From Candidatus Obscuribacteraceae bacterium (GTDB taxonomy: Bacteria; Cyanobacteriota; Vampirovibrionia; Obscuribacterales; Obscuribacteraceae): a DNA stretch of 64,000 nucleotides. Below are positions 8,244 to 61,310 of the stretch, piece by piece. The DNA is taken from assembly GCA_044229845.1 (NCBI GenBank), contig JBGASG010000007.1, positions 221,844 to 285,843 of the forward strand. The letters run 5' to 3'. The notes below the pieces were generated by a model, which saw only the letters and a list, made by a program, of their open reading frames with translations, was not told where the DNA came from and made no database searches. Within the stretch, counting starts at the first letter, position 1. Every line of letters starts with the position of its first letter. Position numbers and translations under genes: made by a program.

Positions 8244-8271
8244 AAATCTCAACCGATATCGGTTGGCGTTT
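8244..8271. repeat. intergenic palindromic repeat, copy 1 (core 8251-8264)
   Basis: aaatctc-AACCGATATCGGTT-ggcgttt, just upstream of mdh. Confidence 0.95.
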
Positions 8272-9269: not shown

Positions 9270-9323
9270 AACTCAACCGATATCGGTTGAGTTCCGCGAT
9301 CTGAACCGATATCGGTTGGGGTT
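9270..9323. repeat. palindromic repeat pair, copies 2-3 (cores 9275-9288 and 9304-9317)
   Basis: 24-bp perfect palindrome aactcAACCGATATCGGTTgagtt, with a second core 29 bp downstream. Confidence 0.95.
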
Positions 9324-14249: not shown

Positions 14250-14277
14250 AGATCTCAACCGATATCGGTTGAGATCT
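14250..14277. repeat. palindromic repeat, copy 4 (core 14257-14270)
   Basis: 28-bp perfect palindrome agatctcAACCGATATCGGTTgagatct. Confidence 0.95.
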
Positions 14278-19844: not shown

Positions 19845-19872
19845 AAATCTCAACCGATATCGGTTGGGTTTC
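19845..19872. repeat. palindromic repeat, copy 5 (core 19852-19865)
   Basis: aaatctc-AACCGATATCGGTT-gggtttc, 31 bp upstream of the lipA ATG. Confidence 0.95.
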
Positions 19873-25256: not shown

Positions 25257-25284
25257 AGATCTGAACCGATATCGGTTCGGGATT
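25257..25284. repeat. palindromic repeat, copy 6 (core 25264-25277)
   Basis: agatctg-AACCGATATCGGTT-cgggatt, downstream of tpiA. Confidence 0.95.
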
Positions 25285-28447: not shown

Positions 28448-28471
28448 ATCTCAACCGATATCGGTTGAGAT
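28448..28471. repeat. palindromic repeat, copy 7 (core 28453-28466)
   Basis: 24-bp perfect palindrome running into a T7 tract, downstream of hslO. Confidence 0.95.
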
Positions 28472-32601: not shown

Positions 32602-32639
32602 AAGAAAAATCTGAACCGATATCGGTTCAGATTTTTCTT
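32602..32639. repeat. palindromic repeat, copy 8 (core 32614-32627), longest copy
   Basis: 38-bp perfect palindrome aagaaaaatctgAACCGATATCGGTTcagatttttctt. Confidence 0.97.
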
Positions 32640-32700
32640 TCGTCGATTGAACTTTTTACCCGCTTGCGACGTTGTATACCTAGGCACATCGAGAGATACC

Positions 32701-33735
32701 ATGAACGAACTTCCATCCAGGCAATTGGACGACGACGCCAGCGCGAGCTTCATCGCAGAGTTCGACAGGCGCTTCCCCACTAACTTCCACTGCGTTATCG
32801 AACTGCGTCGCAGGGCTACAGGCGAGCAAGACCTTGTCTGCCAATGCGGAAGCGGCAACATCAAGATAAAGGATGATCGGAACGCGGAATGTCTTGAATG
32901 CGGGGAGCAATTCTGGTTGCTGGCGGATACCTTTTTTCATGGCATACGCAGACCTCGGGCTTATTTGCTGTTGATTGAAATGTTCGCAGAAGGTGTATTC
33001 ATCAATACGTCCCAGTTTCAGAAGGAGGCGCAGGTTGCATACTCGACAGCTCTGGGCATCTTCAAGAAGTTAACCATGGTTATCGCCGGCGGCATGAATG
33101 ACGGTGTTGAAGTTCCGTCGCACCTTTTTTCTCCGGGTTTCTGCAAGCGAAGCAAAGTCACACCTGCCGGAGAGCACCCTCGAAATGAAGAACGAGTTGC
33201 AGCTCCTCATCTAAATCCCAACCTGTCCATTCGGCAAGTAGACTCCTTGATACCAAATCCGGTGACCGATGAAAGCGCTTTGTCAGACGCGGACCTGGAA
33301 GTCCTCAATATGCTGACTGCGGACCCCATCCAATTTGATGCACTATTCGAGCGGACAGAAATGAGTGTGAGTACTCTGCTTTCTTCACTAACCGTCCTTG
33401 AGTTGTCTGGATTCGTCCTGCGTTTGAGTGCAGACAGATATGCATTGAGCCCGGAGGTTCGAACTAATCCAAATGATGATACCGTCGACTCCGACCGGCT
33501 CCCGGTGCGACAGGCGATTCTGGAAACAGTGGCCACGATTCTCAACTGGATAAAGAGTAGTTTCCACGGTATCAGTCGAAAATATCTTCAGAACTATCTT
33601 GCAGCGTATTGGTGTCTGAGAGACAGAGCGACCTGGAATCCGGGCGCGCTTGCTCGAGCATGTATCGATGCCGATGCCATAAGCGATCAGGTAATCCTTG
33701 CTTATGTCTCACCGCCCCTTGTCCGAATGATTTGA
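32701..33735 (+). CDS. IS1595-transposase-derived protein with an internal DprA-type winged-helix domain
   Basis: N-terminal EFDRRFPT..C, CQC..CLEC zinc ribbon, TFFHG and YSTA..IFKKL HTH; central winged helix; C-terminal FHGISRKYLQNYLAAY. Confidence 0.7.
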   Translation: MNELPSRQLDDDASASFIAEFDRRFPTNFHCVIELRRRATGEQDLVCQCGSGNIKIKDDRNAECLECGEQFWLLADTFFHGIRRPRAYLLLIEMFAEGVFINTSQFQKEAQVAYSTALGIFKKLTMVIAGGMNDGVEVPSHLFSPGFCKRSKVTPAGEHPRNEERVAAPHLNPNLSIRQVDSLIPNPVTDESALSDADLEVLNMLTADPIQFDALFERTEMSVSTLLSSLTVLELSGFVLRLSADRYALSPEVRTNPNDDTVDSDRLPVRQAILETVATILNWIKSSFHGISRKYLQNYLAAYWCLRDRATWNPGALARACIDADAISDQVILAYVSPPLVRMI

Positions 33736-33742
33736 CAGTCCC

Positions 33743-34432
33743 TCAATAAACTTGTGTGCCGAACTGCTGCAACAGGCGCGCGAGAAGCGGATCGTCTTCG
33801 CTCAAGTTATAACCCTCTGTATAGATTCTCTTGAGGGTTGCAACGAGTGTCGGAGTGTCCAAGGTCTGACCCGCGAATGGGAACCAGAGCAATTCACCAG
33901 GGACAGGCGGACCTCCGTTATAGTTTGGAAACCAGTAGTCTATGTCCAGTGGTTGCAATCCAAGTTTCATAAAAAAGCTTTTGCGCTTAGTTCTCACGAG
34001 CATGGCTTCGGGAGCCACGCCAGTCTCTTTCGTCGATTCGATCTCGCTGAAAAGGCCCAGAAAGGCGGGGTATTCGTTTTGCAGCAATTGCTCGCACCGT
34101 TTCCGGTGCACGGTTCCGATTCCGCAACCGCGGAGTGAATTGAGAACTGCGGTATAACAAGCTAGAAGGAACCGTGGACCACGACTGCGGGGCTTCTCTC
34201 GAAAGACTTCAGTGATGGTCATGCAGAGAATCTCGCCTTCTGAATCTCTGGTCTCGTCAAGCTCCATGTCTCCGGTACGAATCTGAGATCGAATATCATC
34301 CAGAGGCTGTCGTTGCTCCGCCGGAAATGCCTCCTCGTATAGCGCCACCCATTCGAGATTGTCTGCTGTGCCGTCCTTGCAAACGTGCAAAGTCTTTTGT
34401 CCTAGCGGAGTATTCACTACGGCTGTATCCAC
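33743..34432 (-). CDS. GNAT-like acetyltransferase-fold protein
   Basis: LYEEAFPAEQR, YTAVLNSLRGCGIG (acetyl-CoA loop) and RKSFFMKLG. Confidence 0.65.
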   Translation of the reverse strand: MDTAVVNTPLGQKTLHVCKDGTADNLEWVALYEEAFPAEQRQPLDDIRSQIRTGDMELDETRDSEGEILCMTITEVFREKPRSRGPRFLLACYTAVLNSLRGCGIGTVHRKRCEQLLQNEYPAFLGLFSEIESTKETGVAPEAMLVRTKRKSFFMKLGLQPLDIDYWFPNYNGGPPVPGELLWFPFAGQTLDTPTLVATLKRIYTEGYNLSEDDPLLARLLQQFGTQVY

Positions 34433-34520: not shown

Positions 34521-34548
34521 AAAGCTCAACCGATATCGGTTTAGATTT
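34521..34548. repeat. palindromic repeat, copy 9 (core 34528-34541)
   Basis: aaagctc-AACCGATATCGGTT-tagattt. Confidence 0.95.
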
Positions 34549-37689: not shown

Positions 37690-38339
37690 TATCGCGTACC
37701 GGCTCCATATAAAAGGAAAGCGAGACGCCCGATAACGCTCTATATGAGCTGGTTTTTAAGAGATGGCATAAATGTAGCTGCCGCGCTGTTGGTGGTACTG
37801 CGTGCGTGCAGCGGAAACTTTTCGGGCCCCTGCACTATCTAACCCCGTAGCCAAGCGCTTGCGAGCGCGAAAAAACCTTGGACAGTTTGGATAACTTCCG
37901 TACACATTTTTTGGACAGGTTGCACATTGCCCCGAAACGGGGCGCGGGTGTACATTAAGAGTAGGTGATCCACAGGAAATGAGTCACGGCGAGCCCTTTC
38001 TCGGGCGCGCAAGTTTCGATTGTCGTATGAATAAAACGAGAACAATCCTTTCCAGCTTTCTGTAGCAGTAGCAGCCTTGGTTGCGCACTGCAGACCGTAA
38101 AACAGCCATTCTCTAAGTGTGCGAAGTCGAGTCAACAAGGCTCGATGAGGGTGTCTGACGCCATATTTGGTGTCACTGTTCGAAGAACCGCACGAACCTC
38201 AATAAATCAGACTTAGTGAATAGCTCATACGGCATGCAGTAACAGTGCAAATGCGGCATATGTTCTTGCCCGCTGGGCACTGCAAAAGGCGAAATGCGCG
38301 ACCACCCCGAGTCTACTGTGTCCTTAAGTGGTGATTTTT

Positions 38340-39718
38340 ATGGCAGTTTATAGAAAAAGTGAAACAGCAAAGTCTTTCCCGTTAGTCGATCGCGGACCAG
38401 CCCACTATGAAGAACTGGCGGATGCGGCGCTGGAAAACTCCATCAACTATTTAAACAACTCCTATTCCAACAAGTTGTGCGGCGCCGAAGGCGCCGTGGA
38501 GTTCAGAGATGGAGGCGTCTATACATACGACAATCACGGCAAACGCTATCTGGATTGTCTGGGCGGCTACGGAATCTTCAACGTCGGACACCGTCACCCC
38601 AAGGTGATCGCTGCCGTCAAAGCGCAGCTGGATCAGGTCTGTCTGCATAGTCAGGACCTGCTGAATCCATGGGCAGCACATCTGGCGCGCCAACTCGCGT
38701 CGGTAGCACCCGGCGATTTGCAATACTCGTTCTTCTGGGCAAAACGGAAATCATCTCGACCAAGAATGCTTACCACGGCGTCAGCATGGGAGCACTGTCG
38801 GCAACCGGACGCGAAGTTTTCCGCAAGCCTTTCGAACCGCTTCTGAACGGATTTGTGCACGTCGATTTCGGCGATGCCAAAGCCATCGAAGATGCCATCA
38901 CCAAAGATACCGCTGCAGTGATTCTGGAGCCAATCCAGGGCGAAGGCGGCATTCACGTGCCGTCGCCAGGCTACCTCCGTAAAGTGAGACAGATCACCAA
39001 GAAAAAAGGTGTCTTGCTCATCTTGGATGAAGTGCAAACTGGACTGGGACGCACAGGTCGTATGTTCGCCTGCGAACACGAAGGTGTCGTTCCCGACATC
39101 CTCTGTCTGGCCAAGGCTCTGAGCGGCGGTGTTGTCCCAATTGGCTGTTTCATGGCCAGTCGCAAGATTTGGAAAGCTCTTGAGCCCAACCCGTCCATTC
39201 ATAACTCCACATTTGGCGGCAACCCGCTTGCTTGTACAGCGGCCTCCGCCACTCTGGAAGTTTTGATGGAAGAACACCTTTCCGCACGCGCCGCGGTCAT
39301 GGGAAACCATTTCATGCGTCGCCTGAACGAGTTGCACGAAGAGTATCCGGAGTGCATCCAAGAAGTGCGCGGCAAAGGACTGTTGATCGGTCTTGAATTC
39401 ACAACCAAAGAATTCCGCGAAATCGTTCAGGAAGAACTCTTCCACCGCGGTGTGCTGGTAGCCGGCACCATGAACGCCAACCGCACAATCCGCATCGAGC
39501 CGCCGCTGATCATCACCGAATCGCAAATCAATTTCATGATCAGCACTCTGGAAGGCGTTCTCGCCGAAAAGCGCAACAAAGCTGCGAAGCTGAAAGCCAA
39601 GTTCGAGAAGTTTCAGAACAAGACAGCAAAAGTCAAAGTCAGCAAGAAAGAAACCGGCGCCAAGAAAGGCGTGAAAAAAGCGGGCAAGGGCGGCAAGAAA
39701 AAGGAGAAGAAGCAATGA
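38340..39718 (+). pseudogene. class-III PLP aminotransferase (putrescine aminotransferase PatA-like), frame broken at about 38735
   Basis: YLDCLGGYGIFNVGHRHP in ORF1; EPIQGEGG, DEVQTGLGRTG and LAKALSGG in ORF2; the conserved NSGTE segment is absent at the junction. Confidence 0.8.
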
Positions 39719-39927: not shown

Positions 39928-39990
39928 AATCCCAACCGATATCGGTTGGGATTTCAGCATTGCAACCTCAACCGATATCGGTTCACGTTT
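39928..39990. repeat. palindromic repeat pair, copies 10-11 (cores 39934-39947 and 39970-39983)
   Basis: 26-bp perfect palindrome aatcccAACCGATATCGGTTgggatt, with a second core 36 bp downstream. Confidence 0.95.
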
Positions 39991-44953: not shown

Positions 44954-45012
44954 AAATCTGAACCGATATCGGTTCAGTTTTCAGATCTCAACCGATATCG
45001 GTTCAGATCTGA
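44954..45012. repeat. palindromic repeat pair, copies 12-13 (cores 44961-44974 and 44990-45003)
   Basis: aaatctg-core-cagttt followed by tcagatctc-core-cagatctga; 29-bp spacing. Confidence 0.95.
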
Positions 45013-50206: not shown

Positions 50207-51394
50207 TTAGCCGTCGCCCGGCTCGACCTTGCCCACCTTGCCCACACCGCGTTCACCGCGTTCAACAGCGGCGCGCACCTTCGTCTCGATTTCCGCCATG
50301 ATCTTAGGATTGGCTTCTAAGAACAGGCGTGCCCCATCGCGACCCTGGGCCAGGCGCTCGTCGTTATAGCTGAACCACGCTCCGGATTTCTTGACGATTT
50401 CCAGTTCGGTTGCCATGTCGAGAATGCAGCCCGAGGTGCTGATGCCGCGGCCGTAGATGATGTCGAACTCGGCAATGCGGAAAGGTGGTGCCATCTTGTT
50501 CTTCACCACTTTCACTTTGACGCGGTTACCGTATTCGGTGCCGTCCTTTTTCAACGTTTCGATGCGACGAATGTCCAGACGTACCGAGGCATAGAACTTG
50601 AGGGCGTTGCCGCCGGTTGTCGTTTCCGGGTTACCAAACATGACACCGATCTTCATGCGCAACTGGTTGATGAAGATGACGCAGGTCTGGGTTTTGGCCA
50701 CGATGCCGGTCAATTTGCGCAGCGCTTGACTCATCAATCGAGCTTGCAGACCGGGGAGCGAATCACCCATTTCGCCTTCGATTTCCGCTTTGGGAACCAG
50801 AGCGGCCACCGAATCGACAATCACCAGATCGACCGCTCCGGACCGCACCAGTTGTTCGGTGATCTCGAGCGCCTGTTCGCCGGTGTCCGGTTGCGAGATG
50901 AGCAGTTCGTCGACATTTACTCCCAGCGCGCGAGCGTATTCGGGGTCCATGGCGTGTTCGGCGTCGACAATGGCAGCGATGCCGCCGCGCTTTTGCACTT
51001 CCGCCGCAACGTGCTGAGCAAGCGTTGTTTTGCCCGAGGCTTCCGGTCCATATATTTCGATGATCCGTCCGCGGGGCAATCCGCCGATGCCGAGCGCCAC
51101 ATCCAGCGCCAGTGCGCCGGTCGGAATCGCTTCCACAGCGCCGTGGCGGGAATCGCCCAGTTTCATGATCGAGCCGTCGCCGAACTGTTTCTTGATGGCG
51201 TCCATAGCCATGCCCAGAGCTTTGACGCGCTCGGGCGGCAGCGGCAGGCGATCTTTATCCTTATCTTTGTTATCCATTTGAGTGGCCGGCGGTTTCTTAT
51301 CCGCTTTGTCGCTGGTCTTGTCGGTTGTTGTGGTGCTGGATTTTTCTGTAGTCGTCGATGATGACGCCATTTTATCCTTGGATGCAAATGCCAT
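50207..51394 (-). CDS. recA: recombinase A with N-terminal extension
   Basis: [28 protein letters not shown] and [12 protein letters not shown] motifs. Confidence 0.97.
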
Positions 51395-51779
51395 TTGTTT
51401 TTCTCTCTCCTGGTGAGTGACAAGAATTCGTGCGACTTTGATCGCTATATCGATGAAGTATCGATCGCGGAAACCCGGTATATATGAGGCATACACGCCA
51501 TTTTCGCGCGCCCACAACAGGGCCGATTATAGCCGCAGGCAGCACCAGGACTAGATTAAACGTGCTGAGGCGGAACTACACAAAAAGCAGCAAACTGGCG
51601 AATTACTGCCGTGTTATGTCTGCGCGAGCGTTTCAAAGATCGCGTCACGGGTATAAAAAGGTTGCTTACCTTACAAATCCTCGCTTTAGGGTCGGTAATC
51701 AGATAACGTCGCCGACGACGAAAAAGTTCAGTACTTTGTAAGTCGTCTTTTGCGGCAAGCCAGGCGGGTCGGCGGAGTT

Positions 51780-61253: not shown

Positions 61254-61310
61254 AAAACCCGAACCGATATCGGTTGGGGTTTGATCTGAACCGATATCGG
61301 TTCGGGTTTT
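61254..61310. repeat. palindromic repeat pair, copies 14-15 (cores 61262-61275 and 61289-61302)
   Basis: aaaacccg-core-ggggtttgatctg-core-cgggtttt; the outer arms make the whole pair one larger inverted repeat; 27-bp spacing. Confidence 0.95.

Follow-up and report, generated by a model that had tools for sequence, protein, structure and literature searches.

A DDE-less IS1595-derived gene with a DprA-type winged helix, its local clouds of palindromes and a possible link to ComM

Introduction

Insertion sequences of the IS1595 group have an N-terminal zinc ribbon, a DDE_Tnp_IS1595 domain bearing the catalytic motif, terminal inverted repeats and an 8-bp target duplication (PMC8101967). For natural transformation, a recent study (10.1101/2024.10.21.619469) reports that the DprA winged helix binds ComM via L350, E353 and L354 (Vibrio numbering), that the winged helix of H. 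pylori DprA does not bind DNA, and that ComM is able to expand or collapse D-loops. Mobile elements are known to counter transformation chiefly by disrupting or silencing competence functions, insertion into comM being one example (PMC12378983). Short motifs, finally, accumulate beside transposase-derived genes in REPtrons and genome-wide as the uptake sequences of Neisseriaceae and Pasteurellaceae.

Here we describe a gene in 64,000 nucleotides of DNA from an Obscuribacteraceae bacterium; this whole stretch is called the window, and its genome G000. An earlier note had read the gene as a domesticated IS1595 transposase, its DDE core replaced by a DprA-type winged helix so as to give a protein with several DNA-binding modules, an interpretation that is partly supported by what follows. 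New are local, paralogue-specific clouds of palindromes, their gene-dependent upkeep, a motif shared with comM, recA and comEC, and a helix resembling host DprA with its L-E-L face. No description of the family was found in the literature covered, which excludes subscription journals.

Results

The gene and its IS1595 ancestry

The gene is an unbroken ORF that contains every motif quoted in the earlier note. Its parts are as follows.

32701..33735, forward strand: the whole gene, 344 aa, IS1595-derived and DDE-less, with a DprA-type winged helix
32731..32901, forward strand: N-terminal helices and C4 zinc ribbon (C47, C49, C64, C67), from cysteine conservation and hhalign
32953..33102, forward strand: IS1595-type helical/HTH region, residues 85-134, presumed to bind DNA and to read the palindrome
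33106..33189, forward strand: what is left of the first RNase-H strand, its Asp missing, then the family motif S-x2-F-x6-RS-x2-TP-x3-HP-x2-E
33190..33264, forward strand: variable linker of low model confidence (pLDDT <50 at residues 160-188) and varying alignment length
33265..33447, forward strand: winged helix, nearest in sequence to DprA of the host family, with T231, E234 and L235 as putative ComM face
33499..33732, forward strand: IS1595 C-terminal helices (GISRKYLQNYL...YVSP)

The IS1595 origin proposed earlier is supported, with homology that is partial in the domain libraries. The Pfam DDE_Tnp_IS1595 match covers residues 275-301 only (E 0.07), that to the NCBIfam IS1595 model is confined to residues 282-308 (E 9e-5), and Zn_ribbon_IS1595 matches 8 of 31 aligned family members. 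Alignment by hhalign to four intact IS1595 transposases from the same host family gave probabilities of 99.6 over the N-terminal 141 columns and 99.7 spanning both ends. Across 162 family proteins the four zinc-ribbon cysteines are each 99% conserved, as are, at 98-99%, R150, S151, T154, P160 and E163 of the family motif and R293, K294 and Q297.

The DDE core is gone, as had been claimed. No Asp is conserved at residues 130-160 across the 162 proteins; the acidic columns conserved in at least 70% of them (28, 96, 163, 198, 213, 234 and 308) do not lie in an RNase-H setting, and the AlphaFold model (pLDDT 78.8) is predicted to lack the RNase-H catalytic sheet, with only short strands at residues 130-160. 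Intact IS1595 proteins of the same hosts do show a DDE core. The first catalytic Asp was said to be replaced within GVEVPS; the residue opposite it is S140 by MAFFT, F143 by hhalign and P139 in the earlier reading, so that the register is uncertain and no proposed position is acidic. Neither terminal inverted repeats, in agreement with the earlier reading, nor a target duplication was found flanking the window gene, and old copies could have lost both. Searches for an HUH transposase gave no Pfam or NCBIfam match and no conserved H-x-H among the 162 proteins. As judged from its sequence, the gene derives from an IS1595 transposase whose DNA-cutting core was lost and whose DNA-binding ends remain.

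Fold searches with the full-length model returned winged helices only, and no PDB sequence was matched under E 0.04; a homodimer prediction score of 0.00 carries no weight either way. The model of a relative without winged helix (pLDDT 92) gave no fold match above Z 4.3 and no Foldseek match under E 0.001 in PDB or viral libraries, which does not itself show a new fold. Between the gene and the next palindrome lies a 229-aa ORF (33743-34432, reverse strand) with no Pfam match, acetyltransferase-like by eye only.

The winged helix

The DprA-type winged helix seen in the earlier note is borne out by Pfam DprA_WH, which matches residues 189-243 above the model cut-off (E 2.3e-11) and all 31 aligned family members. 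The DNA-processing (SMF) domain of DprA was not found by Pfam in the protein or in these members; a separate dprA gene is present in the host genome. In structure, the predicted helix matches 3maj (Z 9.0, rmsd 1.3 over 55 aligned positions), a result equalled by numerous other winged helices. Family helices share a mean identity of 34-40% (best 63%) with 14 DprA helices of the same host family, against 28-31% with 4 outgroup DprA helices, and by this measure DprA of the host is the nearest relative of the winged helix.

Most winged-helix surface positions match the DprA consensus in under half of 76 family proteins. Better kept are D213 (91%), L230 (86%), T231 (66%), L233 (92%), E234 (95%), L235 (70%), G237 (86%) and G244 (87%). 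Mapped by the L-E-L motif, L350, E353 and L354 of the Vibrio protein would correspond to T231, E234 and L235. Because the published DprA helix binds ComM, that of H. pylori does not bind DNA, and the best-kept residues lie on the ComM face, the winged helix is probably not an additional DNA-binding module, contrary to the earlier proposal of several such modules. The gene for the presumed partner, comM, was found in 98 of 104 host-family genomes.

A variable family under purifying selection

A profile search returned 669 proteins at E <1e-30 among representatives clustered at 50%, some of which may be partial. One protein at 95% identity carries the label Candidatus Obscuribacterales, and the nearest ESM Atlas clusters are hypothetical or putative DprA-WH proteins, mostly of Melainabacteria. 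No match at E 1e-25 was obtained in 150 other genomes of the phylum, and no relative was found on viral contigs. The genes form a family of the Obscuribacterales; within the host family, copies range from 0 to about 18 per genome (G090), with five in G000, and the well-assembled genomes G005, G017, G018, G065 and G118 have none. In a FastTree phylogeny with midpoint root, 78 family proteins separate from 24 entries for intact IS1595 proteins, and lineage-specific expansions include 10 G013 copies (support 0.97) and 10 of 11 G024 copies (0.998). Paralogues are at most 81% identical, and close ones have some 1.35-1.75 kb in common, the ends of the shared stretch being uneven.

The architecture is conserved across the family and the loci hold steady inside a genus; at orthologous loci copies have been gained or lost, and some copies are frameshifted or broken. 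All 15 measurable comparisons gave dN/dS values indicative of purifying selection (0.14-0.43; one more was saturated), with 0.167 for this gene and a median of 0.054 over 172 host genes. The term domesticated captures only part of the picture, since copies expand by lineage, come and go, and sometimes break.

Relatives exist that have neither DDE core nor winged helix, mostly behind the promoter-like motif described below. They include L062, L068 and L164-L172 and are multi-copy in G063 and G115, with tandem degenerate half-sites upstream in G063. Their existence behind the same promoter argues that the core was probably not replaced by the winged helix in one step, as had been supposed, and their persistence there suggests that the remaining core does something without ComM.

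A promoter-like motif shared with comM, recA and comEC

Two features of the window are relevant here.

32647..32673, forward strand: bipartite promoter-like motif TGAACTTTT-N13-CGTT, common to comM, recA and comEC
50210..51730, reverse strand: recA, which also has this promoter motif, at about 51730 (context, outside the element)

The pattern TGAACTTTT-N13/14-CGTW occurs 32 times in G000 and 0 times at two shifted spacings. By its consensus it is a putative ECF-sigma promoter. It precedes all five G000 paralogues and comM (G000:C6:216146-217708), which lies with its motif about 4-6 kb before the window start; directly upstream of dprA no motif was found. Nineteen further motif-led genes scanned in G000 include recA, comEC, priA, dnaB, dnaE, sbcC and an ECF sigma factor, together with genes for TnpB, PLD-HTH, DUF6088, DUF1800 and LTXXQ proteins, and the set is mixed in that periplasmic-type genes also belong to it. 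The motif precedes comM in 30/30 loci of 30 genomes versus 1/30 control stretches, and 67 of 71 family genes at loci of other genomes.

Three PLD-HTH-type genes, two DUF6088 genes and one TnpB (L182, L190, L192, L193, L195, L194) stand behind the comM-type motif and may be other riders on the same regulon. The dnaB gene at L197 (G000:C18:312423-314978) has an intein containing a LAGLIDADG domain.

Local clouds of palindromes

The window has 15 palindrome cores, distributed as follows (no strand assigned).

32602..32639: gene-proximal perfect 38-bp palindrome, core AACCGATATCGGTT at 32614-32627
8251..8264: one satellite palindrome core
9275..9317: two satellite cores
14257..14270: one satellite core
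19852..19865: one satellite core
25264..25277: one satellite core
28453..28466: one satellite core
34528..34541: one satellite core, 0.8 kb downstream of the gene
39934..39983: two satellite cores
44961..45003: two satellite cores
61262..61302: two satellite cores (single copy in G001)

In G000, GATATC flanked by at least four further paired bases is 17-fold enriched (95 of 1419 sites), and 80 of the 95 are of four AANN types. For 56 of 72 palindrome clusters a paralogue is found on the same contig no more than 100 kb away, against an expectation of 10.6; of the other clusters, 16 in number, seven are no further than about 27 kb from a contig end, and contig C17 adjoins C6 in G001. Each of the five G000 paralogues is surrounded by a local cloud of its own palindrome variant. 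By half-sites, AACC makes up 40/42 at this gene, AAGC 52/60 at the C3 paralogue and AATT 14/18 on C10, and the C8 and C18 clouds are mixed AAGT/AAGC. The 1.07-Mb contig C1 has 0 AANN-GATATC-NNTT sites, so the motif is not over-represented genome-wide. No site lies within coding DNA near a paralogue in G000. On G000:C8, at 242-300 kb, dense sites are found 70-130 kb from the nearest family gene.

Every G000 copy is preceded by a palindrome and the promoter-like motif; those of the window gene (32602-32639 and 32647-32673) had been overlooked in the earlier note. At gene-proximal palindromes the arms pair far beyond the consensus (43 sites; 0/2000 shuffles), and in satellites such pairing is weak or nil. 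A terminator scan gave nothing at the window palindrome, no simple code relating HTH residues to site variant was visible by eye, and none of the joints listed for contigs of four runs falls at a palindrome, while the RNA run had no coverage of the gene; these run data carry no weight as proof. The aminotransferase gene at 38328-39718 (reverse strand) appears as two overlapping ORFs with a break near 38737, where contigs of three DNA runs have 54 more bases; the deletion in the window is perhaps an assembly or strain difference.

Similar clouds recur in several genera and are small or absent in others. In a set of 41 genomes, a full-length gene is listed for 18, and 16 of these have 11-131 sites; among host-family members without the gene, six have 3-6 sites and a seventh, the fragmented G023, has 12, and 16 outgroup genomes have 0-6. 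Sites gather around family genes in G067, G006, G007 and G041. In G067, 45/48 sites are within 90 kb of its three genes, and in G006, 20/24 sites, around its three genes, are of AACC type. Among the first 50 sites listed for G041, 17 lie within 40 kb of one gene, and this genome also has scattered sites remote from any family gene; five palindromes at G041:C1:4061217-4079390, with no family gene in the 40 kb examined, are possibly an orphan cloud. The first 50 or so of the 64 G007 sites start 100 kb from its gene. With the patterns tried, clouds are small or absent in G013 (13 sites, 10 genes), G010, G021, G063 (15 versus 16 in the control) and G092 (5 versus 1).

An origin of the palindrome from two fused IS1595 ends was considered at 30 loci, of which an ORF filter dropped 11; the 19 ends scored against 1450 controls gave p 0.066, a lead only.

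Upkeep of the clouds

At one test locus the gene is present in G041, G045, G042 and the outgroup G043 and absent from G016. Since G016 is closest to G042 (78.9%), this absence represents a loss. Strict matches to 17 G041 sites, among those alignable, number 14/16 in G045, 9/12 in G042, 3/5 in G043 and 2/15 in G016 (G042 versus G016, Fisher p 0.002, for a single loss event and sites that are not independent). The remnants in G016 have substitutions or deletions, and elsewhere this genome retains paralogues that have AACC-type sites. At a locus where the gene is present in both G016 and G041, the core is kept at all 8 alignable sites (of 10), several of which have shifted, at unchanged positions, toward the variant of the palindrome belonging to the local gene. 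Site positions are kept across 70-76% DNA identity, and 5 of the 17 G041 sites lie within long ORFs for which G016 has stretches of equal length, hence no indel. Cloud upkeep therefore needs the local gene, as observed for one loss event.

Another genus offers a similar comparison, in which G071, G068 and G073 (70-75% identity) lack the G067 gene at the orthologous position. Five alignable G067 sites (of 12) are absent in these relatives, gain and loss being indistinguishable here; their spacers are shorter, intergenic G067 sites having 45-105 extra bases, which fits insertion too. In G071 another member of the family, surrounded by sites of its own, lies about 50 kb away.

G000 and G001, which are about 95% identical, have their sites in place with changes in tandem copy number or single bases only, and no wholly new site was seen between them. 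At fourfold sites (454 genes) the two diverge by 0.14 up to 10 kb from a paralogue, by 0.08 at 10-35 kb and by 0.13-0.17 beyond that; these values are patchy and not independent and so were not used to set the direction of any effect. Almost zero synonymous divergence at G000:C6 220-240 kb, C1 1000-1020 kb and C18 300 kb suggests recent exchange between the two lineages.

Discussion

The reading that we prefer, at about even confidence, is that the gene encodes a selfish, site-specific ComM loader that would bias natural transformation near its own gene. It would proceed in five steps. First, an IS1595 transposase gave up its cutting core and retained the DNA-binding ends, and in most lineages it has a winged helix closest to that of host DprA. 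Second, the shared motif would switch the gene on together with comM, recA and comEC. Third, zinc ribbon and HTH may recognise AACCG-N4-CGGTT, a pair of inverted half-sites, or the variant specific to a given paralogue. Fourth, as the DprA literature and the residue conservation suggest, the winged helix would dock host ComM, which is able to extend or collapse a transformation D-loop. Fifth, the effect would be local, either through action near its own gene or through selection of sites on the gene's own transforming fragment. Cis action is a property of several IS transposases and is a possible source of locality besides linkage on transforming fragments. DNA with gene and sites would then be favoured over DNA without them, whether by helping tagged DNA in or by keeping untagged DNA out; sites would build up and persist within tens of kb, shift jointly with the local variant and decay on gene loss, and new copies without fixed ends might arise from rare illegitimate recombination.

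The fuller version of this reading, which we hold more tentatively, is that of a new kind of selfish element, one that does no cutting or copying of DNA itself and acts as a gene drive through natural transformation. It would mark its neighbourhood with private binding sites, be co-expressed with comM and use a stolen DprA helix to load or trap ComM, such that nearby recombination resolves in its favour, the clouds being the fossil footprint of local drive.

A ComM loader fits the long upkeep of sites, their in-place change of variant, in-gene sites without indels, the clouds, 0-18 copies per genome, the promoter and the helix, and it is preferred for these reasons. Counting against it are the want of in-gene sites near the G000 paralogues, the mixed promoter set with no motif found directly upstream of dprA, clouds that are small or absent in some lineages, relatives that persist behind the promoter without a winged helix, the extra bases at intergenic G067 sites, the scattered G041 sites remote from any family gene, and a gene-loss comparison that comprises one event.

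A REPtron-like copier with new chemistry is an unlikely alternative. Here the protein would copy the palindrome into nearby DNA, either unaided, through the invariant residues RS-TP-HP-E and RKY-Q-Y, or together with enzymes of the host, and the cloud would consist of local, tiny mobile repeats. Consistent with this, 71 of the 72 G000 clusters are intergenic with no orientation bias (by a crude gene caller), tandem arrays differ in copy number between G000 and G001, satellites in G013 and G063 have outer arms in common with the nearest gene's palindrome, and the corresponding spacers of gene-less relatives are shorter and empty. The conservation of R150, S151, T154, E163, R293, K294 and Q297 also speaks for it, and Marinomonas REPs are concentrated near tnpA-REP genes (PMC8266576); local REP amplification is treated only as tandem change in PMC8049555. 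However, the protein has neither an HUH nor a DDE motif, some in-gene sites show no change of length, and no wholly new site separates G000 from G001. Since positions are kept across 70-76% identity and variants change in place, upkeep is needed and copying alone does not suffice, and the DprA helix and the comM-type promoter would be left unexplained.

Slightly less probable still is a host-serving local chromosome factor, in which each paralogue would bind and bridge its own sites and thereby organise or protect a domain of 50-200 kb during DNA stress or competence. MatP and Noc are chromosome organisers of this sort, each a single conserved gene with a fixed chromosomal domain. Purifying selection in all measurable comparisons, loci stable within a genus, a host promoter and sites conserved in place would all be expected of such a factor. 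Less expected are 0 to about 18 copies with lineage-specific expansions, the lack of the gene in five well-assembled genomes, a dN/dS above the host median, lost or frameshifted copies, and a cloud size that varies greatly among lineages.

An autoregulated transcription factor, whose operator would be the proximal palindrome and whose satellites would be operators of neighbouring genes or by-products, is improbable: a palindrome does stand about 25-165 bases before the motif in 62/71 loci of other genomes versus 5/27 control promoters (by a loose rule under which a few are chance picks) and the protein has an HTH, but satellites show no preference for divergent spacers (19/71 versus a 27% background), some are within genes, adjoining genes are unrelated and lineage-dependent, and an operator requires neither a cloud nor a ComM-type helix.

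If the preferred reading, that of a ComM loader, is true, the element steers the recombination step at chosen sequences instead of breaking competence. It would also make testable how the direction of ComM is set, a question raised in 10.1101/2024.10.21.619469, and by what route short palindromic repeats originate and are maintained where no transposase is known for them, and a programmable ComM loader could serve as a local recombination tool. Should the mechanism prove wrong, there is still a measured pattern, palindrome clouds that depend for their upkeep on a linked DDE-less gene, of which no description was found in the literature searched.

Comparison with known systems

With IS1595 (ISXO2-like) transposases the family shares homologous zinc ribbon, HTH region and C-terminal helices, and the terminal repeat of 2 of the 19 scored related elements equals one palindrome arm at 13/14 bases (overall p 0.066). 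It differs in having no DDE core, terminal repeats or target duplication, and in having a captured winged helix and a host promoter. In the IS1595 elements L108 and L110 (the L070 element), the right terminal repeat overlaps the last transposase codons and resembles the AAGT palindrome arm. At L066 (G010:C5:1823000-1842999), two inverted, 99.7% identical 681-bp IS1595 fragments lie 11 kb apart, with a palindrome 4.5 kb outside.

As in REPtrons (TnpA-REP/RAYT with REP/REPIN), a transposase-derived gene stands beside cognate short palindromes with extragenic copies and tandem arrays, and the local concentration recalls the Marinomonas MWYL1 REPtrons (PMC8266576). In contrast to them, the family has no HUH Y1 transposase, the type of enzyme that in REPtrons cleaves and rejoins single-stranded palindromes, and no GTAG or CGTC tag (an arm profile of 206 half-sites contains neither end tag), several copies per genome each have their own cloud, in-gene sites occur without indels, and upkeep is tied to the local gene. 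From DprA-ComM loading, as described in 10.1101/2024.10.21.619469, come the winged helix with its L-E-L face and the promoter motif of comM; the single-strand-binding domain of DprA, however, is absent, and a presumably sequence-specific transposase DNA-binding module takes its place.

Like the uptake sequences of Neisseriaceae and Pasteurellaceae, which accumulate, coding sequence included, apparently by transformation bias (PMC2817400), the palindromes are short motifs; in-gene sites without indels are seen in G041 but not in G000. Whereas uptake sequences are genome-wide and act at uptake, the palindromes are local and gene-linked and would act at recombination. Organisers of the MatP/Noc type differ in that no single conserved gene with a fixed chromosomal domain is found here. 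Taken together, the family fails the defining tests of IS1595 elements, REPtrons, DprA and uptake sequences, yet borrows from each of them.
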